Under the pieces are notes generated by a model. It was not told where the DNA came from, searched no databases, and worked only from the letters and a program-made list of their open reading frames with translations. From assembly GCA_016201505.1 (NCBI GenBank), contig JACQCQ010000009.1:1991-65990 (forward strand): DNA of 64,000 nt. The letters run 5' to 3'. The first letter of the stretch is position 1; each line of letters opens with the position of its first letter. The stretch comes from Candidatus Sungiibacteriota bacterium (lineage in GTDB: Bacteria > Patescibacteriota > Minisyncoccia > Sungbacterales > JACQCQ01). Below, in pieces: positions 1 through 59,043 of the stretch. The position numbers were made by a program, and so were the translations under genes.

Positions 1-280
1 GGGCGAGGCGGAAGGGGGGTGTGGGGGGAATTCCGCCTCGCCCGAGCCGAAGCGAAGCCCCGCCGCCCTGCTCGGTCAGAGCAGAGTCCCGCAAAAAAGT
101 TTTCTTTTCCTTTTAGAAGAAAAAGAAATCGCGCGCCAAATCAAAAAATGCGAAGAAAACTTTTTTGCGGAACAGCGAGCGAAGCGAGCGGCGGCGGGGC
201 GGAGCGTCAGTTTCGCTCAAAGAAATTTCGCGCAAGGTTTAGAATATCCCACAAAAAAAGACGCGCCATCCTCCCATAAA
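1..280. repeat. Low-complexity GC-rich segment sharing a ~30-nt block (cgtttcgctcaaagaaaNttcgcgcaaNgt followed by a TAGAAT/TATAAT -10-like box) with 18036-18068
   Basis: Matched to 18036-18075 by eye. The ORF 19..279 is Arg/Lys-rich low complexity and not credible. Confidence 0.4.
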
Positions 281-3364: not shown

Positions 3365-4108
3365 ATGAGCCTTGTCGGGAGAGTCATCATCGTCGCCAGC
3401 GTTCTGGTTTTCGGATTCTCGTCCTGCGCGCCGTTCAAAGTAACGGGGGTAAAACCCGCCGCCCAGGCACAGGCCGCGGCCAGCGACTCCGCCAAATCGG
3501 CCGCTCAATGCTCGCGTACTGCGCAAGAATCGGTCGGCAAGTTTCTGGCCGGGTTGATGGAGGCCATCTGGAAATCGAGTCTCGTGCTTCTTCGTTCGGT
3601 CTTTCCGCCGGACATGAATCTTCTGCAGGCCTTCAGCGACAAGAACGACGGCGGCGAGGTGGTGAAAGCCATCATGCAATACTCGAAAGAACAAATGGGC
3701 GACCAGGTTGCCCCCGAGTACGATCCGGGGGCCGTCGTCATAGACACCGAAAACCCGCTGGTCAAGCTGGTCACGGTCCGGCGGCATATCGATCACACCA
3801 GTTACAAGACGGGCAAAACCGAGGAGTTGGATGAAGAGCGCCAATTCATGGTCATGTTTGACAGTCCGGACCGAAACTGCATCATCTGGATCCGGGCGAT
3901 TGACCCCGCTTGGAGAAGAATCAGCGAGAGCCAAACCACCGGCTCTCGTTTTATTTTGAATTATTTTTATCCGCCGTCGCAGCAGACCTCAGGCATTAGC
4001 CTAAGGGTGAGTGTGATTATGACAGATAATCTTGAGTCGAGTTTGGGAGTGGATGCTTTGGCGCCTGCTCGCCAGTGCCTGTGTCATAAGGACTCCCTAA
4101 TGTCTTAA
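3365..4108 (+). CDS. Hypothetical lipoprotein (GC-rich islet)
   Basis: Strong SD AAGGAGGTG 7 nt upstream of the ATG at 3365. Signal peptide ending ...GFSSC (lipobox-like). GC-rich codon usage unlike neighbouring genes. Confidence 0.45.
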   Translation: MSLVGRVIIVASVLVFGFSSCAPFKVTGVKPAAQAQAAASDSAKSAAQCSRTAQESVGKFLAGLMEAIWKSSLVLLRSVFPPDMNLLQAFSDKNDGGEVVKAIMQYSKEQMGDQVAPEYDPGAVVIDTENPLVKLVTVRRHIDHTSYKTGKTEELDEERQFMVMFDSPDRNCIIWIRAIDPAWRRISESQTTGSRFILNYFYPPSQQTSGISLRVSVIMTDNLESSLGVDALAPARQCLCHKDSLMS

Positions 4109-4160
4109 GCACACTCTGTATTCTCACTCTCTCCTAAGCTCGTCTAGCAGGCAGATGGCA

Positions 4161-4245
4161 GGCGGGGATTCCGCTGATCTCGCAAGAGTTCGCCTGAAAG
4201 CGAATTGCGAGATGCCACGGCCTCATGGCCGTGTAGCTTCATAAA
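4161..4245. repeat. REP-like double-hairpin element (copy A); copy B at 59195-59265
   Basis: Shared ggattccgcYgatctcgca...gcgaaNtgcgagat (hairpin 1) followed by ccacggcc..ggccgtg (hairpin 2) and gcttcat. Confidence 0.55.
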
Positions 4246-4253
4246 AAAAATAC

Positions 4254-4297
4254 CACCTCGCCCTGATCCGCCCGCTGGCGGGATCGAGGGCGAGGTG
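4254..4297 (-). terminator. Rho-independent terminator for the minus-strand gene 4326..4715
   Basis: ~19-bp GC-rich inverted repeat cacctcgccctgatccgcc/ggcgggatcgagggcgaggtg followed (minus orientation) by a T8 tract. Confidence 0.55.
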
Positions 4298-4325
4298 TGT
4301 GATGCAGGGAGCGCTGCTCCCTTAC

Positions 4326-4715
4326 CTACTTCGGGAAAGCGAAGACGGGTCCGTCGGCCAGGTTCTCGAGCCTCTTCGGCTTCAGCGGATCCACGAACCC
4401 GACCGAGACGGCGGTAGGCACCGTGCTCACGATCGAGGCGGCCGAGTCAATGGCGGTCAACGGCGTGTTAATGACGGCGGCTCCGAGGCCGGTGGCCACA
4501 CCGACGGGGCCGCGCTTGTCCACCTCGTCGCCGACGCTCTTGAAGGGGGCGAGCCCGACGTTGGCTGCGCCGACCACGACGGTCTGGACGCCGTCCCAGA
4601 GGCCCATGAGCGGGTTCGAGTTCACCTTGACCTTGATGTCCGCAGCCGCCGCCGGGGCCGGCGCGACCAGGATTAGAGCGAAAACCGCCATCACTATGAT
4701 GCCGAGTGCTTTCAT
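4326..4715 (-). CDS. Hypothetical small secreted protein (GC-rich islet)
   Basis: Signal peptide MKALGIIVMAVFALILVAPAPAAAAD and an SD-like GGGAGGG upstream. Confidence 0.45.
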   Translation of the reverse strand: MKALGIIVMAVFALILVAPAPAAAADIKVKVNSNPLMGLWDGVQTVVVGAANVGLAPFKSVGDEVDKRGPVGVATGLGAAVINTPLTAIDSAASIVSTVPTAVSVGFVDPLKPKRLENLADGPVFAFPK

Positions 4716-4896
4716 GTTCCCTCCCGGGGGATGGGGTGAACTGCGCCTACTTCGTGTGCTGAAGAAACCATACCACGCTCGTCAGTTCTTTTAAGCGGAC
4801 TTATCCACACCTGTGTATAATTCAAGCCGCAAAAGCACATAGTATAAAGAGAGATACTTCGGGTCGCAGTCAAGCCCAAGAAAAGGGAGGCGGCCA

Positions 4897-5334
4897 ATGA
4901 AGGTGCTCTTTGTCATTCTAGTCATGCTCGCGATGGTTGCCGGATCGGTTCCGGCGGCGGGACAGCCAACCCTGCCTCTCTTCAATCCCTACCCGGGAGT
5001 GACGCAGGAGAAGATGGACACGGACACCAAGTACTGCCTGAACTTCGCCACCGTTCAGGTAACGACGCAAGTGCCCGGCCAAGATAACACCGGCCGCGAC
5101 GCGGCTGTCGGCGCGCTCGGCGGTGCCGCTACCGGTGCCGCCATCGGTGCGATCGCCGGGGGTGGCAAAGGCGCCGGCAAAGGCGCTGCGATCGGTGGTC
5201 TGGCGGGACTCATTTTCGGTGGGCTATCTGGCGCAAGCCAGGCACAGTCGAGTCAAACCCAAACGACGCCCATGCTTGATGGAAATCGATATGCCGCCTG
5301 CATGAACCAGTTGGGATACCCGCGCGTGCCGTAG
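4897..5334 (+). CDS. Glycine-zipper (YMGG/Pcp-like) small secreted/membrane protein
   Basis: GxxxG/AxxxG zipper run AVGALGGAATGAAIGAIAGGGKGAGKGAAIGGLAGLIFGG, signal peptide, and SD GGGAGG upstream. Confidence 0.55.
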   Translation: MKVLFVILVMLAMVAGSVPAAGQPTLPLFNPYPGVTQEKMDTDTKYCLNFATVQVTTQVPGQDNTGRDAAVGALGGAATGAAIGAIAGGGKGAGKGAAIGGLAGLIFGGLSGASQAQSSQTQTTPMLDGNRYAACMNQLGYPRVP

Positions 5335-5359
5335 CCGGTGATCCCCAGGAGGAGAAAAG

Positions 5360-5890
5360 ATGATCACTACGACGACACTGCAGTCAAACGGGGCTGGAGT
5401 TACCGCCAAGTCAAGAAGCATGGGCACTCGCCAGGACGGCCTTGTCGGTTGGAAGCTGGTGCTGCCGATCGTTCTCGGCCTGCTCGCAATGTTTGCCTTC
5501 TCGACGGGGATCATGCTCGCGGCAGATCACGGCGGACGGACGCTGCGTAACGCCGTCATGACGACCTGGCTGCTCGCGTTCTTCTATCCGATCAGCATGC
5601 TCTTCCTGACGCTCGTTCTCGTGCGGATCGGCTGTCAGATCTCGAGATACCCGCCGAGTTCGAAGCTCACCAGCTGGGGATCGAATGCCCCCGGACTCGC
5701 AGTCGGGGTTCTTCTGCTCGCTGTGTTCATTGGTCTAAAGATTCTCACGGGGATGCCGACGAAGACGGGAGCAGAAGCGCTTCAGTCACTGCTCACCTAC
5801 TTCTGCGCCTTGGCGGTCCTGGTGGCCATCTGCGAGGTTGTCCGCTGGCTGGGGCGAGAGATCACGCATCCAGCCTTGAGCCTCATGTAG
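5360..5890 (+). CDS. Hypothetical polytopic membrane protein (GC-rich islet)
   Basis: SD CCAGGAGGAG upstream; 4-5 predicted TM helices. Confidence 0.5.
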   Translation: MITTTTLQSNGAGVTAKSRSMGTRQDGLVGWKLVLPIVLGLLAMFAFSTGIMLAADHGGRTLRNAVMTTWLLAFFYPISMLFLTLVLVRIGCQISRYPPSSKLTSWGSNAPGLAVGVLLLAVFIGLKILTGMPTKTGAEALQSLLTYFCALAVLVAICEVVRWLGREITHPALSLM

Positions 5891-5922
5891 CAGAGGTACT
5901 GCTACATGATCTCGGCTTCGAG

Positions 5923-5964
5923 AGCCGGCCGCTTCCTTCATCTGAAGCGACCGGCTATTTTTTT
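5923..5964 (+). terminator. Rho-independent terminator after 5360..5890
   Basis: Inverted repeat agccggccgcttc/gaagcgaccggct followed by a T7 tract. Confidence 0.55.
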
Positions 5965-6080
5965 GTCAATCGATTTTACTACCACACCAGAAAGCCTCGT
6001 CTCTAAAGACGCGAGTGAATGATTAAAAAATGCCACGCCTTAGTCAGAAAGCCGCGGATTTGCACCCGTGGTGTGGGGGT

Positions 6081-10455: not shown

Positions 10456-10674
10456 CTTAGGCTTGACCAGTCGTTTCAGCGACCTTTTATGCTTTCGTTT
10501 CAGCAGTGTTCCCAACTGCAGCCCATCTTTCCCTAGGGTGCGGTGGTAGATTTGCTGAAGCGTTCCGATCTTGGTATCGTTTCGCTTTCGGCGCAATTTG
10601 CCCGAACTTTTTACTCGAGAGCGCGAGCCTCGCATACCGGGGGCATCCTTGGCTTTTTTTTGCCGTCGTTTCAT
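10441..10674 (-). CDS. Hypothetical very basic small protein (possibly spurious)
   Basis: Lys/Arg-rich 77 aa ORF with no recognised family; its 3' end overlaps a terminator hairpin. Confidence 0.25.
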   Translation of the reverse strand: MKRRQKKAKDAPGMRGSRSRVKSSGKLRRKRNDTKIGTLQQIYHRTLGKDGLQLGTLLKRKHKRSLKRLVKPKKKSR

Positions 10675-10787
10675 CCCGTTAGAAGCAGATCGCGATAAAT
10701 GCTGCTTTCCGCTTAATTAGTTTTTTAATTTTATTAAACAAAGTTTTATGTCCAAAGATTCTACCGTGATCGCGGCTTCTAACGGGA

Positions 10788-11302: not shown

Positions 11303-12022
11303 TTATCCGGCCGTCTCTCCTTTCAATTTATGAAAATCAATCAAAATAACGATGAGCGCCGAGGAGAGAAGGGCGGCCAGGTAGAGCGCGCTGCCCGGCA
11401 GATGGTCTTTCAATATAATAAGGTAGTCAAATCCGGCATGCAAGCAGGCCGCAGCCAGGATGCCGAGGGCGATAACATGTTTCCGGTGGGGAGAAAACCA
11501 AGCTCGGGCAATGGCGTAGCCCACGACGCCGGAAGACAAGGCATGCAGAAAGTTGGCGCCAATAAATCGAGCGATGGATAATTTGGCGCCGAGGATTAAG
11601 TTTCTGCCAATCAGCATTTGCGGATTGTAACTTTGATTGAAGAGAAACAGGATATTCTCCATCGCCGCAAAGCCCATGCCGGCGGTCATCATATAAATCA
11701 TGGCGTCAATCGGTTCGTTAAAATCCTTTCGGGAGAAAGCCAGTAATTTTGCCGCCAGGTATTTGGCGTATTCCTCAACCAGCGCCACGATAAAAAATGT
11801 AAAGAAAAAATTCGTAAACGGGTCGGTTTTATAAAACAGCGCTTCTTGCGCGAGCAAAGCAAAAATGGCCGCGGCCGCCCCGCCCAAAAACGTGATTAAA
11901 ATAAGATGCACGGGTTCGGCATGCCGATCCTCCCGCAGGTAAATCAAAAGCCAAATGATCGGCGGAATAACGCCAAGCGCCAGAAATCCCGAGCTGGTGG
12001 AAACAACGGCCGCGTAATCCAT
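11303..12022 (-). CDS. PrsW-family intramembrane metalloprotease
   Basis: EExxK motif (ALVEEYAKYLAAK), FxxxH, and HxxxD-like (ACLHAGFDY) in a multi-TM protein. Confidence 0.65.
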   Translation of the reverse strand: MDYAAVVSTSSGFLALGVIPPIIWLLIYLREDRHAEPVHLILITFLGGAAAAIFALLAQEALFYKTDPFTNFFFTFFIVALVEEYAKYLAAKLLAFSRKDFNEPIDAMIYMMTAGMGFAAMENILFLFNQSYNPQMLIGRNLILGAKLSIARFIGANFLHALSSGVVGYAIARAWFSPHRKHVIALGILAAACLHAGFDYLIILKDHLPGSALYLAALLSSALIVILIDFHKLKGETAG

Positions 12023-12159
12023 CCCGTTAGAGGCGGACCTGCCTGCCGGCAGGCAGGATCGCGATCAAACGCGTTCGCCGCACAATAATTTTATAAATTG
12101 ACATATATCTAATATATAACTTTTGCGGTCGCGGCCTCTCACGGGATCCATTTTTTTAT

Positions 12160-12234: not shown

Positions 12235-14493
12235 TCAGTGTCGGGGCCAAGGCTCAATCATGAGCAATCTTTTTTCTTTCACGGGCAGATGCTCCCAAAT
12301 GGCTTCGGTCACGTAGGGCATAAAAGGATGCAGTAAAATCAAGCTAGTTTTTAAGATCGTGTAGATCAAAATTTTTGCCGCTTCTCGGTCTTTTTCATCA
12401 TCTGATTGGAGCCGCGGTTTCGCCGACTCGATGATTGTGTCGGCGAAGGTGTGCCAGAAATAATGGTAGAGAGTTTCCGCGGCGTGATGGAACTTAAACG
12501 CTTCCATATCTTGGCTGACTTGTTTTGTGAGCCCATCCAAGTCTTTTAGCAGTTTTTTGTCATGCTTCGTTAGCTTGGCTTTTTTCGCATTCGGCTCCGT
12601 ATCTTCGAGATGAATCAAGACAAACCGCGAAGCATTCCAAATCTTATTGGCAAAATTTCGATAGCCGCGGATTTTATCTTCAGAGATAATCGGATCATTC
12701 CCCGGCGTGTTGCCGACAACCAGCGACATGCGAACGGCGTCGGTGCCGTATAATTCTGCGACACCCAGCGGGTCAATTACATTGCCCTTTGATTTTGACA
12801 TTTTCTGCCGATCCTGATCGCGGACGAGGCCATGCAGATAGACTTTTTTAAACGGCACTTTCCCGGTCCGGTACATGCCAAGCATAATCATGCGAGCCAC
12901 CCAAAAAAAGAAAATATCCCAGCCCGTTTCCATGACTGAAGTCGGGTAAAATTCTTTAAAATCTTTGCCGTCAGGATAGCCGAGCGCCAAAAACGGCCAC
13001 TGGCCGGATGAAAACCAGGTATCAAGAACGTCCGGATCTTGAATAAGATTATGATCGCCGCATGCGGGGCATTGGAGAGGCGCTTCCTTTGAAACAATCG
13101 GGGGGCAGCCCTCCCTCGCTCTGCCGGAGCTTTGGCGGGCGCTCAATTCTCTGGCCGCACCCTCGTCGCGGAGAAAATTGGCGCAAAACCAGGCCGGAAT
13201 GCGAATGCCCCAGCTAATCTGGCGCGAAATATTCCAGTCGCGGAGCCCTGACATCCAATGATAAAAAACTTTTTCAAATCGCTTCGGGATGAACTCGATT
13301 TGTTTTGATTTAATGGCCTTTACGCCGAGATCGCGCAGCGAAGTTTTTGTATTTCCTTTGTCGGTCATTTTTACAAACCACTGCGGGATGACCATCGGCT
13401 CAATAATGCCGCCCGATCTCGCCGAAACCGCGACCGAATGTTTATATGACTCATCGATTTTAGTAACGAGGCCCTTGGCTTGCATATCTTCTACGACCTT
13501 TTTGCGCGCTTCTTCGACTTTCATCCCCTGATAGGGCCCAGCCCGTTCATTCATTCGTCCGTATTTGTCGATGACCTGCTTGATTTCAAGATTATGCCGC
13601 AAGGCGATTTCAAAGTCGGCCGCATCATGCGCCGGCGTTACTTTGACAACACCCGTGCCGAATTCGGGGTCGACCGCCGCATCTGCGATGACCGAAATTT
13701 TTGCTGGTCCCAAAACTGTTTCAATATCAATCATCTGGCCGACAAATTCCCTGTATCGTTTGTCTTTCGGGTTTACCGCGACCGCTGTATCACCAAATTT
13801 AGTCTCGGGACGAACTGTCGCGAGTTCCAACGGCCCGTATTTTATGAAATAGAGCGGATCATTGCGCTCTTCGTATTTTATTTCTAAATCGGAAAGCGCT
13901 GTTTGATCTTTGACCGACCAATTGATGATGCGCCTCCCGCGATAAATGAGACCATCTTGATACATTTGGACAAATGAATCCTCTACTTTTCCAACGATGT
14001 CGGCATCAAGCGTAAATTTTTCTCTAGACCAATCGCATGAAGCGCCCAGTTTGCGTAACTGGTTTTCCATGACGACTTTATTTTTTTGCGTGAACTCGAA
14101 AATTTGGCTGTACAATTCTTCACGCGAAAAATCTGACCAGCGCTTGCCTTCTTTTTCCAACTTTTTTCGATAGACAAATTCGGTTTCGATGCCGGCGTGA
14201 TCGGCGCCCGGCAGCCAAAGCGCTACTCGCCCGCGCATGCGCTCGAACCTCGTCATAATATCCTGAAGCGTCACGAATAAGGCGTGGCCGATATGGAGTG
14301 CTCCGTTCGCATTCGGCGGCGGCATGATGATGGAAAATAGCTCTTTCTGCTTACCGGCCTTACCCCGCGAAACTCCAGTTGAGCGGAGTGGGGGCAGTTT
14401 GTCGGGATTAAAAAAACCAGACGCTTCCCAGCGCTTGTAAATCGCACCTTCTACTTTTTGCGGCAGATAAGCCCCGTTAGGAAATGTATCCAT
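12235..14493 (-). CDS. valS: Valine--tRNA ligase (class I aaRS; compact form without C-terminal coiled coil)
   Basis: PPPNANGALHIGHA (HIGH), KMSKSKGNV (KMSKS) and DWNISRQISWGIRIP; 752 aa. Confidence 0.7.
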   Translation of the reverse strand: MDTFPNGAYLPQKVEGAIYKRWEASGFFNPDKLPPLRSTGVSRGKAGKQKELFSIIMPPPNANGALHIGHALFVTLQDIMTRFERMRGRVALWLPGADHAGIETEFVYRKKLEKEGKRWSDFSREELYSQIFEFTQKNKVVMENQLRKLGASCDWSREKFTLDADIVGKVEDSFVQMYQDGLIYRGRRIINWSVKDQTALSDLEIKYEERNDPLYFIKYGPLELATVRPETKFGDTAVAVNPKDKRYREFVGQMIDIETVLGPAKISVIADAAVDPEFGTGVVKVTPAHDAADFEIALRHNLEIKQVIDKYGRMNERAGPYQGMKVEEARKKVVEDMQAKGLVTKIDESYKHSVAVSARSGGIIEPMVIPQWFVKMTDKGNTKTSLRDLGVKAIKSKQIEFIPKRFEKVFYHWMSGLRDWNISRQISWGIRIPAWFCANFLRDEGAARELSARQSSGRAREGCPPIVSKEAPLQCPACGDHNLIQDPDVLDTWFSSGQWPFLALGYPDGKDFKEFYPTSVMETGWDIFFFWVARMIMLGMYRTGKVPFKKVYLHGLVRDQDRQKMSKSKGNVIDPLGVAELYGTDAVRMSLVVGNTPGNDPIISEDKIRGYRNFANKIWNASRFVLIHLEDTEPNAKKAKLTKHDKKLLKDLDGLTKQVSQDMEAFKFHHAAETLYHYFWHTFADTIIESAKPRLQSDDEKDREAAKILIYTILKTSLILLHPFMPYVTEAIWEHLPVKEKRLLMIEPWPRH

Positions 14494-14873
14494 AGACTCA
14501 CAACAAATTTTATAGGCTGATATTCAGATTTTCAGATATAAATCTCAAGTTAAATTTTCTAACGGGGTAAACTTGCCATGGTCAAATTTCTTCGATATAT
14601 CTAAAGCGGGCTCGTGGTTAGCGTACCATAGAGAAGAACGCTCGTTCCATTCTTGAAATTTCGGCCTTGAGGAGGTGAATAGGCAGTCATGAATTTTTAC
14701 CTCTGCGAATTCAGTGATCTCGAGCCGGTCATCGCGGCGAGACTCGCCGAAGAAGGTTTCTGTCCCGGAATTCCCCAGTGCGGCATTCGGGCTAAGGATT
14801 ATCGCGCGGGGAAGTGCGATCTCGAAGGCTGTCCCCGGCGAGCCCGGGAGAAGGCCTATCTGCAAACCACTGG

Positions 14874-23187: not shown

Positions 23188-23188
23188 G

Positions 23189-23260
23189 TGCGCGCGCTAG
23201 GATTCGAACCTAGGACCCACTGTGTATAAGACAGTTGCTCTACCGCTGAGCTACGCGCGC
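23189..23260 (-). tRNA. tRNA with anticodon TAT (tRNA-Ile UAU), no encoded CCA
   Basis: RC reads gcgcgcgtagctcagcggtagagca-actgt-cTTATac-acagt-gggtc-ctaggttcgaatcctag-cgcgcgc-a, a regular cloverleaf. Confidence 0.6.
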
Positions 23261-35590: not shown

Positions 35591-36013
35591 ATGCTGGAAA
35601 GTACTCAATTTTTGGTTAAGAATTTTATGAAATATCACTCATTACTCAAAATAGGCACTGTGGCGACAGTTGTTGTTTCGTTAGGTCTTTTTATCCCGCA
35701 AATCTCCGGTGCGGCTGCGGTCCCTACGCCATCGTATGCGCCAAATAATACCGGCACCATAAGTGATTTTCCGAATTTTATCTCGAGACTAGGTGGGAAC
35801 GTTGCTAATATTTTTGGGACACTTATTTTGGCTATTTCTGTGATTATGATTCTCTATTCAGCTTTTTTATTTCTCACTGCACAGGGTGATGCGACAAAAC
35901 TTACCACAGCTCGTAACGTGTTACTTTTTGCTTTGGTTGGTGTAGCAGTAGCATTGCTGGCATATATTCTGCCGAATGCTGTAAGTAATTTTGTTCAAAC
36001 AAACGTACAATAG
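35591..36013 (+). CDS. T4SS-pilin-like protein (single module)
   Basis: Signal peptide then ILAISVIMILYSAFLFLTAQGDATKLTTARNVLLFALVGVAVALLAYILPN. Possible start at 35627. Confidence 0.5.
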   Translation: MLESTQFLVKNFMKYHSLLKIGTVATVVVSLGLFIPQISGAAAVPTPSYAPNNTGTISDFPNFISRLGGNVANIFGTLILAISVIMILYSAFLFLTAQGDATKLTTARNVLLFALVGVAVALLAYILPNAVSNFVQTNVQ

Positions 36014-36032
36014 TCATACAGCAAACAAGAAA

Positions 36033-36093
36033 CCGCCCAGCTCCCCTTGCGGGGAACTGGGCGGTCTTCGTTTCGCGGGGCATCCGCGAAACG
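36033..36093. terminator. Two consecutive hairpins forming a bidirectional terminator between convergent genes
   Basis: ccgcccagctcccc-ttgc-ggggaactgggcgg and cgtttcgcgg-ggcat-ccgcgaaacg. Confidence 0.6.
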
Positions 36094-36099
36094 GTTGGG

Positions 36100-37356
36100 T
36101 CAGGATTTCGCTTGCGGCGTTACCCTGACCGTGAAGACGGCTCGCGCGACTTTGTCGCGCGAGCGCTCCTGAACAAGAAGACGCAGGTCGGAGAGCCCAG
36201 GTTTCTCCGGCAAGGGGAAACTTCCCATTGTCGGCTCGCCGTTTTGGCAGGGCCAGCGAACGTTCTCGTACTTCCATTCGCTGGTTTCCGCGTTGAACGT
36301 CGCGAGATTGGTCTCGACATCGCAAAGAGCAACCGGCAGGCCGTTACCGGCCCTTTCGCCAGTCAGTCCCTCGCGGTACTCGAGCACCGACTCCGATTTG
36401 GCGAGAATCGGCCGCGAGACCAGTTTCCACTTGGTGTCGGTCGGCTGGATGACGACGTCCTCCCGCCAAGCCTCGACCGCGATCTGCCGCGGCGTGAAGC
36501 TTGTCGCCGGCCGCGACGTGATCCAGTTGTGCCCCCACATGAGACCAAGTCCCACCAGGAGCACAAGCACTGCGAGCGCTACCTTCTGTGTGAACCAGCT
36601 AAGCACCACCGCCGTCTTGGTACCGGCTGCAGCGACTTGCCGCTTCTCTCTCATCGCGAGGATGATCAAGATGGCGGCAACGGCAACAGCGAGGAACCGG
36701 AGGATGGTGGCGTAAGGCGTCCACCAGCTGGACGAAAAGATCGTCTGCTTATCGAAGACCGTCCGCCAGCTTGCATCGCTCGGATACAGCCAACAGCCGA
36801 GGCTCACCAGCACATGGATCGCGAAGATGACAAGGACCAATTTCTTGATCCGTCGCGATCCACTCTGGTCCCAAACCCCGTAGAAAATTGCCAACCCGAT
36901 GCAGCCGAGGAAGACCATGAAGGCAACCTCGGGCCGCTCATCAACGGGGAGCCAGACTTCGGCGAAGCCGATCATCATCAGGACGCAGACGACGCCTGCG
37001 GCGAGTTGTAGATACTTTTTTGCCGACTCGATGATGATGTGGGCGATGCGCTCGTCTCGCACGGGCGACGTAGCCGGTTGCCGATTGAACAGAGTCTCCA
37101 GCTCGATACCGATCACGGCACGCCGCCACTCGAGCCAGAAGAAGATTCCCATGCCGATCGGCATGGCGACGTCGAGCGCCACGAGCTTCTGGTAGAAGCC
37201 GTAGGCTCCGGCGATTCCGCCTGCCAGGATCAGCCCGAGCGTAGCAAGAACGGCCACGAAAACCGAGTTCCGCAGCCGGCGCAGCTCGGTCAGGTGCCAG
37301 GTCAGAGCCTCCTGGATCGTGTGGATAATGGTCATGAAGGTTTGCATTAGATCCAC
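36100..37356 (-). CDS. Hypothetical polytopic membrane protein with C-terminal soluble domain (GC-rich islet; third gene of an overlapping operon)
   Basis: ~8 TM helices; its start overlaps the upstream gene's stop by 10 nt; GC-rich. Confidence 0.5.
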   Translation of the reverse strand: MDLMQTFMTIIHTIQEALTWHLTELRRLRNSVFVAVLATLGLILAGGIAGAYGFYQKLVALDVAMPIGMGIFFWLEWRRAVIGIELETLFNRQPATSPVRDERIAHIIIESAKKYLQLAAGVVCVLMMIGFAEVWLPVDERPEVAFMVFLGCIGLAIFYGVWDQSGSRRIKKLVLVIFAIHVLVSLGCWLYPSDASWRTVFDKQTIFSSSWWTPYATILRFLAVAVAAILIILAMREKRQVAAAGTKTAVVLSWFTQKVALAVLVLLVGLGLMWGHNWITSRPATSFTPRQIAVEAWREDVVIQPTDTKWKLVSRPILAKSESVLEYREGLTGERAGNGLPVALCDVETNLATFNAETSEWKYENVRWPCQNGEPTMGSFPLPEKPGLSDLRLLVQERSRDKVARAVFTVRVTPQAKS

Positions 37357-37958
37357 CTCCTCCAGCCGCGGGCGTTTCGAGCGTTGATGGCCCGGAGGCC
37401 ATAAGCAATTCGATCGATTTGCTGTGCGACCGCCTGGTCAGCCGCAGCCAGTCTCGGCAGTGTCGTTTGGGCTACCACATGGATGGCCATCTTCAGAAAC
37501 TCGGCCAGTCCATCATTATGGTAGATTCCGAGACGTGCGATGAAGTTCGCGACTCCCTGTCGGGGGTCGGAATCCCAGAGCAACTGCTCAAGCTCAGGGT
37601 AAACCTTAGCACGGTCTCGCTGGGGAACCTTCGTCAACATGTTGACGATCCAGTTCTCCCGCGTGTACGTGTCACCGACAGGGATGAATCCCCCTTCGGT
37701 ATTCATGTACTCGAGGAGCTGCACGATCCTCTGGCAGTTGAACCTGCCGAGGTCCTGTACCATCTCGATGCGGTCGGTATCGAAGATGTGGCCGAGTTCT
37801 CGGCCAAACCCCTCCGCCGCACGCCGGTGGCGCTCTTTCGGGTCGCTCGTCATCTCGGCATCAGGATTATGCTTGTGCCAGAAATGTAACCCGACCCCGA
37901 GAACGCTCCAGAACAGCGTTTCCGTCCCGACCTCTTTCAGCCAGTCAGGGATTCTCAT
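37347..37958 (-). CDS. Hypothetical protein (GC-rich islet; second gene of the operon)
   Basis: ATGA start/stop overlap with the upstream gene; His-rich N-terminus (HFWHKHNPD). No confident family. Confidence 0.5.
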   Translation of the reverse strand: MRIPDWLKEVGTETLFWSVLGVGLHFWHKHNPDAEMTSDPKERHRRAAEGFGRELGHIFDTDRIEMVQDLGRFNCQRIVQLLEYMNTEGGFIPVGDTYTRENWIVNMLTKVPQRDRAKVYPELEQLLWDSDPRQGVANFIARLGIYHNDGLAEFLKMAIHVVAQTTLPRLAAADQAVAQQIDRIAYGLRAINARNARGWRRWI

Positions 37959-38551
37959 GGCTTCAGTCCTTTCAGCCAGCTCTTGTCAGCCGGCCCGAAG
38001 TTTTTCCCCGGGAGAATTTTCTCCCAGATGAGTTCATCGTTGAGTCCGGCGATGACGCGAACGAGTGCACCCTCGTTTCCCGTGAAGGAAAATGAGAGCG
38101 AACCATCCGCTTCAGTCTTGAGGTTCGACTGCTTGATTCCCGCGACCTCGACAGTCACGGGACAGTCACCGATCAGCTGATCATCCGCGTCCGCGGCGCT
38201 GATAAGAAGACGCCAGTTGCCCGGCTCGCCCGTGTCGCTCACGCGGAGCTTCGCGGGCTTCTTCTTTTCCCTCATCTTCGGGGTCTCGATCGTCTCACGC
38301 GCATGATCTTCCAAAGCTTCGCACTGCGCGGTGATGAGATAGTTCCCCGCGGCAAGACCCGACCATTTGTAATTTGCACGACCGTGGTCGCTTGTCCGCC
38401 TTTCCTCTTGCGCGGCGATGCCGTTCAAAAAAAAGGTGACACGCTTGTTGATGTCTGGTTGCCTGCGTTCTCTTACGAGAACAGTCGCTTCGACTGTCCC
38501 CATGTCACCTTCTTTATTGGCGACGGTTTTGAGACTTATCCAGTCCGCCAT
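37955..38551 (-). CDS. Hypothetical protein with two carboxypeptidase-regulatory-like (transthyretin-like beta-sandwich) repeats (GC-rich islet; first gene of the operon)
   Basis: SD AGGAGGA upstream; repeats VTFFLNG..SGLAAGNYLITAQ and VTVEVAG..TEADGSLSFSF. Confidence 0.45.
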   Translation of the reverse strand: MADWISLKTVANKEGDMGTVEATVLVRERRQPDINKRVTFFLNGIAAQEERRTSDHGRANYKWSGLAAGNYLITAQCEALEDHARETIETPKMREKKKPAKLRVSDTGEPGNWRLLISAADADDQLIGDCPVTVEVAGIKQSNLKTEADGSLSFSFTGNEGALVRVIAGLNDELIWEKILPGKNFGPADKSWLKGLKP

Positions 38552-39441: not shown

Positions 39442-39644
39442 GTGTCGATGGGCCAGAGTTTCAAATTTGATGCTAAGACGGTATGCTGACGGAGCGCCGA
39501 GATGGCGGAACCCAGCACCAAATTCCGAGATGAGAAAAACTTTCATATTGCCCGTGGTCATGTCTTTAATTCATCCTGATCTGATTTGCGGATAAATTTG
39601 TAGAATTGATGCTGGGCGAGCTGGTATATCTACCCCGTACCAAT

Positions 39645-39726
39645 GCCTCTGTGGCGGAACTGGAATACGCGCGCGGCTTAGAACCGCGTGGGGAAACCCT
39701 TACAGGTTCAAATCCTGTCAGAGGCA
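39645..39726 (+). tRNA. tRNA-Leu (anticodon TAG), embedded in an extended hairpin
   Basis: ggcggaactggaatacgcgc D-arm typical of tRNA-Leu, anticodon loop cTTAGaa, long variable arm, T-loop ttcaaat. Flanks ccccgtaccaat and attggtacgggg extend the acceptor stem by 12 bp. Confidence 0.85.
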
Positions 39727-39749
39727 TTGGTACGGGGCGCGTACGGCCT

Positions 39750-44570: not shown

Positions 44571-44796
44571 ATTATAAAAAAACGAGCTCGACCTTTTAAC
44601 CCCGTTAGAAAAATACCTTGTGCTTCAGCTTAAAACTTAAATGCGAAGCTCTAACGGGGTGAACTGAACTTTAGTATAGCATTGTCGTTTATAGGCTCAA
44701 GAGTTTTAGCGGTTTATTTTTCGACGCGATTATTGACATATGCATATTTATATGATATAAGACATGAAGATTTGATCATTCTAGTTTCTTGGGGGT

Positions 44797-46988: not shown

Positions 46989-47645
46989 TTGGCATATAGT
47001 GAAGATGCTATGGAACTTGTCTTAGAAAAACTTTTCGAGTCGAAGGCAAAAGTCAGAATTTTGCGCTTATTTTTAAGGAATCCGGCCAGTCATTTTTCGC
47101 TCGATCAAGTCTCGCGTCTGGTGGGATTGAAAGAAGAAGAAACGGCAAAAGAAATTTCAAAATTTTTGCAGCTTGGCATTTTAAAATGGCGCACGACGCA
47201 AGTCGTCGTTTCGGAACTTTCCGGCAAAGGCAAAATGAAAAAATTGCGCATGCGCCAAAAAACGGTCAGAGTTTTTATCGCCGATGAGAACTTTTATTTT
47301 TTCAAGGAACTGCAGGCCTTAATTCTGCGCCAGGTGCCGGAGTCGCGTCATCGGCTGGTTTCAAAAATCAAAAAACTGGGCCGCGTGAAGCTGGCCATCG
47401 CGACCGGCGCTTTCGTCAATAATGATTCGGCGCGGGTTGATCTTTTAATCGTGGGTGACTCTATCAATCGCCGCAGGCTCGAGAACATGCTGCATACCTG
47501 GGAGGCCAACGCCGGCAAAGAACTGACTTATGCCCTGATGACGACTGAAGAGTTTAAATATCGCGTGGATATGTTTGACCGGTTTACCCGCGACATTCTT
47601 GAAACTTCGCATGATAAGTTGATCAATGCGCTGAATGTGAGTTAG
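46989..47645 (+). CDS. Hypothetical protein (possible wHTH N-terminus)
   Basis: Coding-like composition; no confident motif. Confidence 0.45.
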   Translation: MAYSEDAMELVLEKLFESKAKVRILRLFLRNPASHFSLDQVSRLVGLKEEETAKEISKFLQLGILKWRTTQVVVSELSGKGKMKKLRMRQKTVRVFIADENFYFFKELQALILRQVPESRHRLVSKIKKLGRVKLAIATGAFVNNDSARVDLLIVGDSINRRRLENMLHTWEANAGKELTYALMTTEEFKYRVDMFDRFTRDILETSHDKLINALNVS

Positions 47646-47761
47646 GAAATGGGAAATTGGAAATAGTGAATAGACGCTTGAACCAAAAAGTCGCCTCGAC
47701 TTCCGCCAGCCGGCGGATCGCGGACGATTTTTTGCTACTATCACTTCGTGACAGATCATCT

Positions 47762-47800
47762 GCGCGCATAGCTTGGTGGCAGAGCGTTCGATTTCGCGGA
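47762..47800 (+). pseudogene. Mini pseudo-tRNA (tRNA-Val-like acceptor plus D-arm joined directly to a T-loop)
   Basis: gcgcgcatagcttggtggcagagcg|ttcgatttcgcgga; the D-arm is nearly identical to that of the neighbouring tRNA-Val. Confidence 0.35.
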
Positions 47801-47834
47801 CACTTAGTTCAGTGGTAGAACGTCGCATTCATTC
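47798..47834 (+). other. 5' half of a split tRNA (acceptor, D-arm, anticodon stem tcgca and loop ttCATtc; anticodon CAT)
   Basis: Pairs with the 3' half at 47949-47983: anticodon stem tcgca/tgcga is perfect and acceptor ggacact/agcgtcc matches 6 of 7. Confidence 0.4.
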
Positions 47835-47851
47835 ATCCCATTAGATTTCCT

Positions 47852-47923
47852 GGGTGATTAGCTCAGTGGCAGAGCGTTGCATTCACATTGCAAAGGCCAC
47901 AGGTTCGATACCTGTATCACCCA
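47852..47923 (+). tRNA. tRNA-Val (anticodon CAC)
   Basis: gggtgattagctcagtggcagagcg-ttgca-ttCACat-tgcaa-aggcc-acaggttcgatacctgt-atcaccc-a. Confidence 0.8.
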
Positions 47924-47948
47924 CTCAAATAAATCTAACGGGACAAGT

Positions 47949-47983
47949 TGCGAAGGCCGCTGGTTCGATCCCAGCAGCGTCCA
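47949..47983 (+). other. 3' half of the split tRNA (anticodon stem 3' strand, variable loop, T-arm, acceptor 3' strand)
   Basis: tgcga-aggcc-gctggttcgatcccagc-agcgtcc-a. Confidence 0.4.
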
Positions 47984-48065
47984 TCGCTGGAAACACTCTG
48001 GCAAAACGCCGAAGAGACGAAATCAAAAAGAATGAATTGAAATTAGTCTCGTCTTAGACCTCATA

Positions 48066-48098
48066 CCGATATTGTACTATAGGGTAATATAGGTATAT
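48066..48098. repeat. Third copy of the attgtactataggg... motif
   Basis: cataccgatattgtactatagggtaatataggtat matches the RC of 38824-38851 at 22 of 23 positions. Confidence 0.5.
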
Positions 48099-48196
48099 TT
48101 CTATCCGCGCTCCAATTTCTGCCAACTGGCGGATCGCGAATCGATTCCGACTAAAAAAGAACGGCCCGCATGAACTTCATGGTTCATGCGGGTCTA

Positions 48197-48430
48197 TTAG
48201 GTCCCCGCTGCTTCTGCAAAAATCCAGACCTCGTCCTCCGAGCGCAGATCTTTCGGAAGCCGCGCCGGTATCCGGCCGCGATGGATAAAGTCGCACATCA
48301 GCCGATTGCCTTCGGCCCAGTTTGCTCCCAGCCCAGAGTGGTGGTACGGACAGAGCGCCTCCTCACCCTCCTCACCCTCCTCACTTCTCGTCGCGGTTAT
48401 TTCCGCGCCGCAGTAGCTACAGCGTGGCAT
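48197..48430 (-). CDS. Hypothetical zinc-ribbon protein (GC-rich islet)
   Basis: SD TAGGAGGT upstream. CxxC...CPYHH. Contains an internal 9-bp tandem repeat (cctcaccct) x2.5 encoding EEGEEGEE. Confidence 0.4.
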   Translation of the reverse strand: MPRCSYCGAEITATRSEEGEEGEEALCPYHHSGLGANWAEGNRLMCDFIHRGRIPARLPKDLRSEDEVWIFAEAAGT

Positions 48431-48610: not shown

Positions 48611-49027
48611 CTAGTAAAGGTCTGGGAACTTGAGCCTAAAGGCATCATGGAAAAATCGATATGAGGGGTTAGTAGCACTGGATTTGAATTGCTTGAACCA
48701 CCATTGGAATTGACGTTTTTTATAACCTGAAAGTTTTGGCCACAATAGAGGTATCACGATATTTTTAAGGCTGCCGATGTTTCGTACAATTAGCATCGCA
48801 TAATGGCGGCCTCCATGATGATATTCGTATACCTTTTCTGACGTTAGGCCAAGAGAGTCTCGTACATCCATAACAAGGTTATAATCCCGGATAGGCATTT
48901 TTAAGCAAAATACAGGCCGCTTATACCCGTCGCCAGCCATAGTCCAATAAAAAGTCCCTTCGCCCACTACGAGTCCAGCAACAAAATCCAAGCTCAAGGT
49001 TTCACGTGTTACGCCAATTTCAGTCAT
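48611..49027 (-). CDS. Free-standing LAGLIDADG homing endonuclease (single-motif, I-CreI-like)
   Basis: LDFVAGLVVGEGTF LAGLIDADG motif; 138 aa; markedly AT-rich compared with its flanks. Confidence 0.7.
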   Translation of the reverse strand: MTEIGVTRETLSLDFVAGLVVGEGTFYWTMAGDGYKRPVFCLKMPIRDYNLVMDVRDSLGLTSEKVYEYHHGGRHYAMLIVRNIGSLKNIVIPLLWPKLSGYKKRQFQWWFKQFKSSATNPSYRFFHDAFRLKFPDLY

Positions 49028-49661: not shown

Positions 49662-49887
49662 TTGTAAGGATTTCTAACGGGATGAAGGAGCACGTAGTCC
49701 AAGTTCTTCGCCAGCCGGCGGATCGATAGCCCAACTAGAAAAGTCTATAAAGTCTATCTATATAAGAATTTACCCCTGCGTCCTAGGAGGACGCAGGGGG
49801 CATTGGCCGTTGTTTCACTTCAGTATCTCTTCCAGTCGGCCGATGAGGTAGACAGCGCAGTTTGGGTTATATCCCGACTGATTAAAC

Positions 49888-53688: not shown

Positions 53689-54032
53689 GAGTATGTTTTT
53701 TCCTTGAAGTGTTCGACCTTTTTACCTAGTTGTGATCCTAATAATCCGGATGCATCCGAATGACCCGAAACAATCTGAAGTAACAAATTACTTCATCCAT
53801 CTCCATCGTATTTTTGGTCTGCGGAACATTCGCGAGCTATGCGGGATGTTCGGATCGGCACGTGAACTACTCAACTATTGTAGATGAGGCCGCGATTATT
53901 ACGCAAGGCCCGTTACTCGGTAGACTTTTAGAAAAAATATGTCGCTGTGATTAACTTTTTATTTTCGTGAGGACCGAGTAACGGGCCAAGCCCGCCTAAA
54001 TTTTGCTATATAAAACTTGGCCGGGCAAGGGC

Positions 54033-56797: not shown

Positions 56798-57030
56798 TGA
56801 ATCCCGTTAGAGAATGAATCAGAGACTACATTTCGAACATGAAACTCACGACACATAAAGACATGAGACCAGCAACAGAGTTAGTAGTTAATTCTCTAAC
56901 GGGATGAATCCCGTTAGAGAATGAATCAGAGACTACATTTCGAACATGAAACTCACGACACATAAAGACATGAGACCAGCAACAGAGTTATTAGTTAATT
57001 CTCTAACGGGATGAATCCCGTTAGAAGCCG
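56798..57030 (+). repeat. Tandem direct repeat, 107-bp unit x ~2.2, each unit bounded by the cccgttagaga...tctctaacggg inverted repeat
   Basis: Units start at 56798, 56905 and 57012 and differ at one position. Lies upstream of gpmI. Confidence 0.85.
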
Positions 57031-57239
57031 TGATCGTCGAAAGATCAAAAACAATGTGACGCCGGATAAATTAGATAATTTAATGCAGACTCCGCGTAGG
57101 GTCGCGATCCCGCTACCACAAAGCCTTCATGGATTTGACTACGGGACAAGCCTAACTATGACAGACTTACTATTCACTACGGCTCACCCCGTAGTCACCG
57201 AGCACGCGAGGTGTACTACCGGGGTCTCTCTCTAACGGG

Positions 57240-58844
57240 ATGAAAGCCTATAAACCCGTCGTACTCATCGTCATGGATGGATTCGGCGTTTCCTTGGAAG
57301 AAAAAGGCAATCCCGTCGCGCTCGCCAAAAAACCGACGCTGGATTTATTTGACGCCAATTTTCCCATGACGACACTGCAGGCTTCAGGCGTCGCCGTCGG
57401 GCTGCCCTGGGGCGAGGCGGGAAACTCGGAGGTCGGCCATTTAACCATGGGCACCGGCCGCATCAACTATCATCACCTGCCGCGGATTATCTACTCGATT
57501 CGTGACGGCAGTTTTTTTGAAAATCCGGCCTTTCTGCACGCCGCCGAGCACGTTAAAAAAAATAATTCAAAACTGCATATCATTGGGCTTGTTTCATCCG
57601 GCTCGGTCCACAGCTACATCGATCATCTGTATGCACTGTTAAAATTTGTTGAACTGCAGGGTCTTGCGCAGGCATTTTTGCACGTTATTACCGATGGCAA
57701 AGATTCTCCGCCGCAGGAAGGCGTTAAATTTTTAGCGCAACTTGAAGAAAGAATGATTAAAGAATTTCCGCAGACGAAAATCGCCTCAGTTGTCGGCCGA
57801 TTTTTTGCCATGGACCGCGATGAAAAATGGGATCGGATTGAGAAAGCTTATCAGTTGTGGACCGAAGCCAAAGGCAGTCCGATAACGAATATATCCGAGT
57901 ATGTATCGAGCGAATACCAAAACGGGCGCAGTGACGAATTTGTTGAACCCGGCTATGTCGCGCCAAATAATGCTCCCTTGGCTACGATCCACGACGGCGA
58001 CGCAGCCATTATTTTTAACTTCCGTGAGGATTCAGTCAGAGAAATTTCGCATGCCCTTATTGACCAGGTTTTTGATCGCTTCCCGCGAACGCAGGTCGCC
58101 GATTTATTTTTGGCGACGATGACGATGTATGAAGATTCACTCGCCGCCGAAGCGGCGTTTCCGCCGCTTCAGGTCAGTTATCCGCTCGCCCGCGTCATTT
58201 CGGACGCCGGCCTGCGGCAACTCCATATTGCCGAAACGGAAAAATACGCGCATGTAACCTATTTTTTCAATGGCGGGCGTGAAAAACCGTTTCCCAGCGA
58301 AGAACGCATACTCGTCTCCTCGATTTCGACCGCCCATTTTGATGAAGTACCCGAGATGAAAGCGGCCGATATTACAGCCAAAGTTATTGCCGAGCTCCCG
58401 CGGCATGATTTTGTCTTGGTTAATTTTGCTAACGCCGATGTGGTGGGCCATTCCGGCAATCAAGCAGCGGCCATCAAGGCAGTTGAGTCGGTTGATCGCT
58501 GTATCGGCGAAATTTATGAGGCGGTCGCGCGTGAGGGCGGCGTTTTAGTGGTCACCGGAGACCACGGCAACGTCGAGGCCAAACGCAACCTGCTGACGGG
58601 CGAGCGGCTGACCGAGCACTCATTAAATCCCGTACCGTTCTATTTAGTCGGGGCAGACTTTCGTGTTTCAGTGGCCCGCTCTCGCGATGAAGTGATCAAA
58701 CAGAAGAAAGAAACCGGCGGCATTTTAACCGATGTGGCGCCGACCATCATTGAGCTGATGGGATTAAAAAAGCCGCTTGAGATGACGGGAAGCTCGTTGC
58801 TACCCATGCTGATCTCACAGCACTTTGTTCACCCCGTTAGTTGA
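57240..58844 (+). CDS. gpmI: 2,3-bisphosphoglycerate-independent phosphoglycerate mutase
   Basis: PVVLIVMDGFG N-terminus, SEVGHL, metal-binding His/Asp blocks (VVTGDHGN). Confidence 0.9.
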   Translation: MKAYKPVVLIVMDGFGVSLEEKGNPVALAKKPTLDLFDANFPMTTLQASGVAVGLPWGEAGNSEVGHLTMGTGRINYHHLPRIIYSIRDGSFFENPAFLHAAEHVKKNNSKLHIIGLVSSGSVHSYIDHLYALLKFVELQGLAQAFLHVITDGKDSPPQEGVKFLAQLEERMIKEFPQTKIASVVGRFFAMDRDEKWDRIEKAYQLWTEAKGSPITNISEYVSSEYQNGRSDEFVEPGYVAPNNAPLATIHDGDAAIIFNFREDSVREISHALIDQVFDRFPRTQVADLFLATMTMYEDSLAAEAAFPPLQVSYPLARVISDAGLRQLHIAETEKYAHVTYFFNGGREKPFPSEERILVSSISTAHFDEVPEMKAADITAKVIAELPRHDFVLVNFANADVVGHSGNQAAAIKAVESVDRCIGEIYEAVAREGGVLVVTGDHGNVEAKRNLLTGERLTEHSLNPVPFYLVGADFRVSVARSRDEVIKQKKETGGILTDVAPTIIELMGLKKPLEMTGSSLLPMLISQHFVHPVS

Positions 58845-59043
58845 TTTATAGCAGTGAAACTAATCTTAACAGGGATCTATTCAAGCCTAAGGTCAGATCA
58901 ACTGACGGGGCAAGCCCATTACGCGGATAGGAGGCGATCAAACACGAGCGCACGGTGGGAAAGTTCTTGCTAGATTCCGTATAAGTCGAGCTCCGGTAAC
59001 ACAGAAGAATTCGCCCCCCGCTTTTTACATAATTCTCGCAACC

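Follow-up and report, generated by a model that had tools for sequence, protein, structure and literature searches.

Several systems are known in which a tRNA gene is disrupted, or in which the disrupting element brings a tRNA gene of its own. In the tRNA-dependent lysogeny of actinobacteriophages, a complete temperate phage, equipped with a tyrosine integrase and a short att core, disrupts an essential tRNA gene and supplies the same isotype (Guerrero-Bustamante & Hatfull 2024, PMC10865867). Archaea carry split (Nanoarchaeum), tri-split (Caldivirga) and multi-intron tRNA genes that are spliced at a bulge-helix-bulge (BHB) motif (PMC4390854, PMC4090602; PMC10714607), and group I introns have been reported in tRNA genes of Patescibacteria, including at position 35/36, in a paper that mentions neither tRNA-Val nor nesting (Nakagawa et al. 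2026, PMC13011429). The locus described here lies in a 64,000-nt stretch of a Candidatus Sungiibacteriota genome (contig JACQCQ010000009.1, positions 1,991 to 65,990; hereafter the window), where an intact tRNA-Val(CAC) gene is nested between the two halves of a second tRNA gene. Like the phage system, this arrangement pairs disruption of an essential tRNA gene with supply of the same isotype. Unlike it, the insert is 116 bp long, with the tRNA as its sole gene and a 13-bp inverted repeat, and the nesting is iterated to as many as five layers. The insert is no temperate phage with an integrase and att core, and an integrase-type gene adjoins only one of the nests (L075; L-numbered loci are the metagenome contigs and unitigs that were compared with the window). 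Full-text literature searches on split or nested tRNAs in the Candidate Phyla Radiation (CPR), and on the arm sequence of the insert, found no published description of a nested tRNA-Val arrangement.

The explanation we lean towards is that the anticodon loop of tRNA-Val(CAC) was repeatedly invaded, at the DNA level, by inverted-repeat cassettes that carry a replacement tRNA-Val and leave dead shells behind. It draws direct support from the anatomy of the locus, the Val identity of its layers, their recurrence, the presence of the same cassette in different hosts, and a repeat family with target-site-like duplications. A resident GGACACT-type tRNA-Val(CAC) would have been struck in its anticodon loop by a 116-bp cassette laid out as TTCA, a 13-bp arm, 3 nt, a complete tRNA-Val(CAC), 7 nt, a 13-bp arm and CAAG. 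The insertion would have destroyed the resident gene, with loss of C36 and A37, and the cargo tRNA would have taken over its function. An earlier invasion would lie behind the orphan 5′ stump of an older Val gene further out, making two sequential invasions, and a working tRNA would be expected from the innermost gene alone, with the outer halves as relics. The arms would be those of short elements resembling miniature inverted-repeat transposable elements (MITEs) or REPINs (repetitive extragenic palindromic doublets forming hairpins), and a neighbouring LAGLIDADG endonuclease is a candidate driver, with a large serine recombinase adjoining the nest in L075.

One tRNA gene lies in two halves on the forward strand, at 47798-47831 and 47948-47983, and the 116 bp between them (47832-47947) hold the intact tRNA-Val(CAC). 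The layers thus run from an orphan 5′ half (47762-47797) through the split gene (47798-47983) to the intact core (47852-47923). The outer 5′ half comprises the acceptor strand GGACACT (47798-47804), TA, the D-arm GTTC/AGTGGTA/GAAC (47807-47821), G, the anticodon-stem strand TCGCA (47823-47827) and loop nucleotides T32, T33, C34 and A35. The outer 3′ half comprises T38 (47948), TGCGA (47949-47953), AGGCC, the T-arm GCTGG/TTCGATC/CCAGC (47959-47975), AGCGTCC (47976-47982) and A73 (47983). The anticodon stem pairs at 5/5 positions and the acceptor stem at 6/7, with the mismatch A5·C68. The insert opens with TTCA (47832-47835), followed by the left arm TCCCATTAGATTT (47836-47848), the linker CCT (47849-47851), the inner tRNA-Val(CAC) (47852-47923; called by ARAGORN, and by Rfam RF00005 at 70.1 bits, E 3e-13), the linker CTCAAAT (47924-47930) and the right arm AAATCTAACGGGA (47931-47943), which pairs with the left arm over 13 nt at 92% complementarity. 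It closes with CAAG (47944-47947). Apart from the tRNA cargo, the insert has only about 44 nt. Both terminal words also occur at non-tRNA sites, TTCA before left arms (window 58832, L055 3767 and L127 3958) and CAAG after right arms. When the outer halves were joined, ARAGORN accepted the product as a cloverleaf tRNA, while 0/200 joins of random window pieces were accepted. An earlier note on this stretch, made from the letters and their open reading frames (ORFs), had proposed two halves of one gene with these stem pairings, a complete tRNA-Val(CAC) between them and a gene broken at its anticodon loop by the insertion, and all of this was borne out.

An assembly artefact is ruled out by the same architecture in many independent assemblies and by Logan unitig support for both flanks. 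Independent Logan unitigs of two SRA runs (L001 and L140) are 100% identical to the window, one on each side of the nest, and share a 30-nt overlap within the inner Val gene. The unitigs of the two runs break at a 30-mer of the anticodon arm in the inner tRNA-Val (47877-47906) and at the 3′ end of the neighbouring tRNA-Pro (49661), which implies that these tRNA segments also occur in other sequences of the samples, either as strain variants or as further copies.

The identity of the split outer gene was settled by its relatives. A metagenome scan with the outer 5′ half as query returned 11 loci, and in L087, L089 and L093 the gene is uninterrupted (GGACACTTAGTTCAGTGGCAGAACGTCGCATTCACATTGCGAAGGCCGCTGGTTCGATCCCAGCAGTGTCCA, 72 nt; called tRNA-Val(cac) by ARAGORN in L087) and has the anticodon arm TCGCA-TTCACAT-TGCGA with anticodon CAC. 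The window halves are identical to this gene at 33/34 and 35/36 positions and cover 70/72 nt, with only C36-A37 missing, and this degree of identity excludes a chance origin. The sole difference of the 3′ half from the L087 gene is a T to C change, which produced the A5·C68 mismatch and is uncompensated. An alignment also places A73 and the variable loop AGGCC in both the outer gene and the inner tRNA-Val. Judged by sequence, the outer gene is a disrupted tRNA-Val(CAC) and not a tRNA-Met/Ile(CAU). The earlier note had read the loop as TTCATTC and assigned the gene to tRNA-Met/Ile2(CAU); the letters are indeed present after the 5′ stem, and ARAGORN labelled three artificial joins tRNA-Met(CAT), but the apparent CAT arises where the native TTCA runs into the insert's own TTCA at the junction, and it is not an anticodon. 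Since that second TTCA is part of the insert and recurs away from tRNA genes, since the uninterrupted gene has CAC, and since A73 and AGGCC are held in common with the inner tRNA-Val, a split or interrupted tRNA-Met/Ile2(CAU) gene is scarcely credible. Relevant to the CAU idea is a tRNA-Ile with anticodon TAT elsewhere in the window (23188-23260, minus strand, Rfam 74.9 bits). Its presence suggests that AUA codons are decoded by tRNA-Ile(UAU) and not by a tRNA-Ile2(CAU) carrying lysidine.

As it stands the outer layer does not read as a functional gene: it holds 116 bp in its loop, and excision at the repeat boundaries would leave a loop of 5 nt (TTCA+T). Running ARAGORN on the locus with intron mode (0-300 nt), a check that the earlier note had proposed, called no intron-bearing outer tRNA and found the inner tRNA-Val alone. 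In practice, standard tRNA finders report only the core gene at such a locus, and a naive reading yields a false split tRNA(CAU). Removing the insert at other nests (L055, L072, L087 and L013) leaves TT+CAT.

Directly upstream of the split gene is the orphan 5′ half of a third gene of tRNA-Val type (47762-47797, forward strand: GCGCGCA / TA / GCTT-GGTGGCA-GAGC / G / TTCGA / TT, then TCGC). It comprises the acceptor strand, D-arm and 5′ strand of the anticodon stem, and is identical at 28/33 positions to the first 33 nt of the L055 tRNA-Val(CAC). The piece had been described before as an armless mini pseudo-tRNA; a tRNA remnant is really there, but armless is wrong, as the D-arm is present. All three layers are thus of Val type. 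A 3′ partner for the orphan half was sought up to 280 nt downstream, and candidate scores were no better than those of shuffles. We infer that the orphan half, for which those 280 nt hold no matching 3′ half, is the outermost layer and that two invasions followed one another.

Comparison with syntenic loci, also proposed earlier, returned the same nesting in relatives. The order helix-turn-helix (HTH) gene, tRNA-Val(CAC), tRNA-Pro(TGG), tRNA-Gly(TCC) is conserved in 80 Parcubacteria loci, most of which have a plain Val gene, so that the nest is the derived state. The same nesting is found at this position in about a dozen other Parcubacteria, with up to five layers, and a motif scan flagged extra D-arm or T-arm pieces beside the Val gene at 16/63 loci, though a few of these flags are spurious. 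One complete shell is present in L055 and in L056, and two in each of L004 and L075. In L087/L093 there are four or five, with acceptor strands GGGCAGT/ACTGCCC, GGGCGCA/TGCGCCC, ...GGCGTCC and GGGTGAC/GTTACCC around a GGACACT core. L072 has three orphan 3′ halves and a second nest, while L030 and L083 have stacked 5′ halves alone. The 5′ and 3′ halves always stand in mirror order, and the acceptor strands of nine shells pair at 7/7 positions: two in L004, one each in L055 and L056, two in L075 and three in L087, where a further one was recognised by eye. An inverted repeat flush with a tRNA gene was found at 14/67 non-redundant Val genes, 2/17 Pro genes and 1/5 Leu genes, and at 0/46 other tRNA genes.

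The shells also vary in where they are broken. The Val and Pro nests have loop nucleotides 34-35 replaced by the element and the window 36-37, and all seven loop nucleotides are kept only in L056, where the insert lies at 35/36. In three loci (L004 5475-5575, L006 4787-4890 and L052 4825-4925) the intact-core tRNA-Val has a leader-trailer helix of 12-13 bp that extends its acceptor stem (CGAATACAAAGT|tRNA|ACTTTGTATTCG); this helix covaries among the genomes, and the outer Val gene there is broken in the D-loop and not in the anticodon loop. Further hairpin-rich inserts of 40-190 nt lie in the D-loop, variable region and T-loop of outer shells whose stems still pair (L004 5300-5590, L056 4690-4790, L072 4770-4830 and L013 3880-4070), the T-loop insert of L072 being bordered by a GGTT repeat, and extra palindromic inserts occur in shell anticodon loops as well. 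An identical 20-nt GC-rich palindrome, CCTGCCTGCCGGCAGGCAGG, is present at window 12040-12059 (inside a repeat element), at L004 5609-5628, which is position 37/38 of an outer tRNA-Val shell, and at about 1375 in L007; it looks like a second small mobile palindrome common to several genomes.

Comparison of the nests shows that the cassette and its host shell change partners. The unit CCCCGTTGCAATTT-TAA-GGACACT Val-...-AAATTGCAACGGGG sits within different host shells in L084, L087 and L089. In L084 (the same sequence as L054, L085, L088 and L091) the GGGCGCA Val gene is the intact core and the GGACACT gene is split. In L087 the GGACACT Val gene is the core and the GGGCGCA Val gene the split shell, and this shell, read by eye, is identical to the L084 core at all non-loop positions. 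This swap of roles between two Val genes is evidence of cassette mobility. Signs of decay are seen in the shells as well: L084 and L089 have truncated T-arms, L067, L072 and L030 retain orphan halves, the window copy has its uncompensated A5·C68 mismatch, and extra palindromic inserts have entered shell loops. L083 (942-1180) has two stacked 5′ halves with the junction TTTTTA-CCCCGTTAGA, followed by a core whose acceptor strands, GCACCCT and AGTGCCC, do not pair; this chimeric core is apparently a recombinant collapse between layers.

The 13-bp arms of the insert belong to a family of the form YCCCGTTAG...CTAACGGGR that is spread across this genome and its relatives. The window contains TAACGGGR 18 times where 3.2 would be expected, a count reached by 0/100 shuffles, and most occurrences are members of convergent YCCCGTTAG...CTAACGGGR pairs 60-440 nt apart. 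Besides the nest, the window has such elements at 10674-10787, 12022-12146, 14472-14567, 44600-44659, 53907-53987, 56802-57240 and 58832-58910, each with a different interior and many bordered by 4-nt TNNA duplications, and three stand in tandem, separated by TGAA, directly before the start codon of an iPGM-like gene at 57241. We assembled 24 distinct arm pairs from the window and the compared loci, mostly family members, with a few that do not have the core YCCCGTTA/TAACGGGR. Arm positions 1-8 are largely conserved, and positions 9-13 vary but stay complementary. Arm mismatches are A·C or C·A in six cases and G·T or T·G in two, and therefore lack the wobble bias that selection on RNA would give. 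Identical 4-nt flanks of the form TNNA border 8/24 pairs (TAAA, TTGA, TGGA and TGAA once each, TCCA and TTCA twice each), and these are the signature expected of a target-site duplication. In a second flank class, to which every Val nest and some non-tRNA sites belong, TTCA is fixed on the left and CAAG on the right; at the Pro nests the flanks are the exact reverse complement, CTTG...TGAA, so the element is oriented.

This family was also found outside the tRNA loci, in phage-like contigs. Cargo-free family hairpins (TTCA, 13 bp, CCA, 13 bp, CAAG) and nested copies are present in three distinct IMG/VR contig sequences. A scan of viral contigs for TTCAYCCCGTTAGAAR returned 45 matches, about the number estimated by chance, with real paired arms only in L104/L128, L117/L124 and L127. 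Several right arms end exactly at a start codon (TAACGGG|ATG or GTG), at window 57233-57243, at 12022-12030 on the minus strand, and at L127 3245 and 3958; the abutting genes are the iPGM-like gene at 57241, a minus-strand gene at 12022 and a radical-SAM-like ORF in L127, a phage-like contig. Such a position could result from processing that yields leaderless mRNAs, or from a preference for (A)TGAA as the target. No description of the inverted-repeat family, which is abundant in these genomes and in phage-like contigs, was found in the literature searched.

The family resembles MITEs, REPINs and mobile insertion cassettes in its short terminal inverted repeats with a conserved core, in its many, mostly intergenic copies, in the 4-bp flanking duplications of about a third of them, and in cargo that holds no transposase. 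Terminal inverted repeats common to many copies, as in MITEs, are found here, the core being present in most of the 24 pairs. The family differs from MITEs and REPINs in that the interior is different in nearly every copy, the inner arm varies and yet stays complementary, and the tRNA sites show a 2-nt loss with TTCA/CAAG flanks.

Some of these features weigh against the cassette invasion that we favour. The tRNA-Val and tRNA-Pro sites have no 4-nt duplication, being flanked by TTCA...CAAG or its reverse complement, and we know of no transposition chemistry that would give these fixed words together with the loss of two target nucleotides. Cargo that changes in nearly every member is unusual for MITEs, and an inner arm portion (4-6 bp) that varies and remains complementary would need gene conversion, many master copies or selection on the hairpin. 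No transposase was noticed among the ORFs scanned, and no transposase or recombinase recognising the arms was identified, a negative that is limited by no search having been aimed at transposases. A viral-contig scan for an arm followed by a tRNA D-arm gave no stalk-flanked tRNA among the at least 120 matches listed. Lastly, the stems of the shells are in very good condition, about 11 shells having 7/7 acceptor pairs, and it is D-, anticodon-, variable- and T-loops, not stems, that hold the extra inserts, a pattern also compatible with continued selection of the shells as folded RNAs.

By-hand models of the junctions were tried for several mechanisms, and none fits all junction types: BHB splicing, group I introns (U...G boundaries), serine recombinases (shared central dinucleotide), tyrosine recombinases (identical overlap at both junctions) and an IS200/IS605-style insertion 3′ of TTCA.

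An alternative is that the nest is intron-like and is matured as a single RNA precursor. RNase P and RNase Z would free the inner tRNA, an endonuclease and ligase would remove the stalk, and the outer halves would be joined into working tRNAs, or would form a tRNA-like RNA of two pieces with some other role. Folded as a whole at minimum free energy, the unit does form the inner cloverleaf, the stalk and the outer anticodon and acceptor stems, but nested cloverleaves would be expected of any palindromic DNA insertion. Shell stems are nearly perfectly conserved, with extra inserts confined to loops; however, many shells are truncated or orphaned, and that of the window has an uncompensated acceptor mismatch. 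The well-kept stems, the avoidance of stems by the extra inserts and the complementarity of the variable arm part favour some constraint on the RNA or on a DNA hairpin; the arm mismatches are mostly A·C and not G·U. The linkers between stalk and tRNA also appear constrained, at 0-4 nt on the 5′ side and 3-7 nt on the 3′ side (CCC...GGG-type stalks, tRNA-Val and tRNA-Pro), RNA processing at the hairpin base is possible where family arms abut start codons, and Patescibacteria are rich in tRNA and rRNA introns (PMC13011429). Against this, cutting at the stalk base and joining gives loops of 5 nt or 13 nt instead of TTCACAT, except in L056. No BHB could be drawn by eye at any junction type, as the stalk abuts a 6x7- or 8x5-nt internal loop with no 4-bp central helix. 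An Rfam search of 47600-48200 at E<=10 gave the inner tRNA and chance hits alone, with no RF00028 or other intron. The intron-like alternative that the earlier note had offered thus gained no positive support from a BHB, an Rfam intron or the 5-nt loop left after excision, and we consider an RNA-level intervening sequence quite improbable.

The same evidence sets the locus apart from the described interrupted tRNA genes. It is like the disrupted tRNAs of archaea in that the halves are parted at the anticodon loop, complementary sequence lies by the break and intron-like inserts occupy several loop positions. It is unlike them in having a bacterial host (L7/L12 and L10 genes lie upstream), no BHB, an insert that is a complete tRNA of the same specificity, and an abnormal joined loop. 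With the group I introns of Patescibacteria it has in common the phylum and the anticodon-loop target, the insert of L056 lying exactly at 35/36; unlike them it has no ribozyme, as there was no Rfam intron match, and its sequence outside the cargo is far too short. We favour insertion of DNA over RNA splicing because of the 4-bp duplications, the truncated shells, the wrong loop sizes, the lack of a BHB or ribozyme and the A·C mismatches. The shells are, we infer, non-functional, and the cassette would have entered by DNA transposition or recombination.

A neighbouring gene suggests how such entry could have been driven. On the minus strand, 630 bp downstream of the nest and before the YraN gene, is a free-standing, single-domain LAGLIDADG-type ORF of 138 aa (48611-49027), which matches Pfam LAGLIDADG_1 at E 7e-4, below the curated cut-off, and the LAGLIDADG endonuclease of PDB entry 4efj at E 3.8e-8. 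Homologues occupy the same position beside the tRNA-Val locus in L007, L087/L093 and L005, a positional association through which the ORF is possibly linked to the nest. Free-standing homing endonucleases that act on a neighbouring gene are known, such as SegB of phage T4, which acts in a tRNA gene region, and the 'collaborative homing' of mobE or F-CphI with endonuclease-less introns. As in those cases, a LAGLIDADG-type ORF stands beside the tRNA-Val locus in four lineages, and an interrupted allele would resist cleavage; unlike them, most nests have no such ORF nearby and the link is positional only.

Under recursive homing, a mechanistic variant of the DNA-level model that leaves the anatomy unchanged, the endonuclease would cut the loop region of intact tRNA-Val(CAC), and repair would copy in an immune interrupted allele carrying a fresh tRNA-Val; the process is repeatable, and layers can build because each copied cassette brings a new intact target. 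The opposite-strand ORF lies just downstream of the Val locus in all four lineages, and 3/4 carry shells. The junction types TTTTCA...CARGCAT and TTCATTCA...CAAGT recur with differing acceptor stems, as co-conversion of flanks would give, and shell and core roles are exchanged between L084 and L087. On the other hand, most nest loci have no LAGLIDADG homologue in the 4 kb examined, no nest accompanies the ORF in L005, the Pfam match of the window ORF falls under the curated cut-off, and homing leaves the repeat family at non-tRNA sites, with its 4-bp duplications, unexplained. Homing of this kind is possible but unlikely in our estimate. We are just as doubtful of a bolder proposal, in which the nests are an active self-repeating system, either by homing-type re-invasion that buries each gene deeper or through YCCCGTTAG...CTAACGGGR hairpins that act as RNA-removed intervening sequences and mature nested tRNA-Val isodecoders and mRNAs with abutting start codons.

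tRNA genes are classic integration sites, and the nests could be scars of prophage or island integrase action at tRNA-Val, that is, att-site duplications left after the element was deleted. A large serine recombinase (Resolvase, Recombinase and Zn_ribbon_recom domains; L075 5426-7003) does lie about 300 bp downstream of the two-layer Val nest in L075, directly after it, and L072 and L067 have arrays of orphan 3′ halves. However, an attP carrying the 3′ part of a tRNA gene would duplicate that part only and leave a hybrid intact gene, so that an att scar is a direct repeat of one tRNA end; here both halves of one gene enclose a different, complete gene in strict nested order, and the insert measures merely 116 bp and is bounded by an inverted repeat. 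Integrase scars are accordingly a very unlikely source of the nests.

If cassette invasion is the right explanation, ultra-small CPR bacteria are home to minimal selfish cassettes, about 110 bp in length, which can safely interrupt a tRNA gene that is essential and present once, because the cassette brings its replacement. Repeated events would then have left a legible history of up to five layers at the locus, which would be the smallest known form of 'disrupt and complement' and a natural record of tRNA gene turnover and of horizontal exchange between related populations. Should the repeat family instead work through RNA, it would represent bacterial intervening sequences of a new class.

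Counterparts of the Val nest occur at two other tRNA genes of the window. Beside the neighbouring tRNA-Pro(TGG) gene, at 49670-49706 on the forward strand, the right arm ATTTCTAACGGGA is followed by TGAAG and a 3′ fragment of a tRNA-Pro anticodon arm; the phenomenon is the same, and complete tRNA-Pro nests are present in L025 and L089. At 39633-39737, also on the forward strand, a tRNA-Leu(TAG) gene lies between the arms of a similarly built 10-bp inverted repeat (CCCCGTACCA / TGGTACGGGG) and is followed by a T-arm-like fragment.

Upstream of the nest is the HTH gene (ORF 47010-47645, directly before it), preceded by rplJ and rplL, which encode L10 and L7/L12. In its ATG-start form of 211 aa, the product of this ORF has an exact NCBI counterpart in a Candidatus Sungbacteria MAG. 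A motif containing GCCAGCCGGCGGATCG occurs in three copies around the tRNA genes (47692-47722, 48108-48138 and 49706-49725), with 8 loose matches against 1.2 expected. The first copy lies within an A-run/T-run hairpin directly after the HTH gene, and the motif may be a terminator module or a decayed T-arm. The G+C content of the window is about 0.60 in two 2-kb blocks, 4001-6000 and 36001-38000, and about 0.49 elsewhere.

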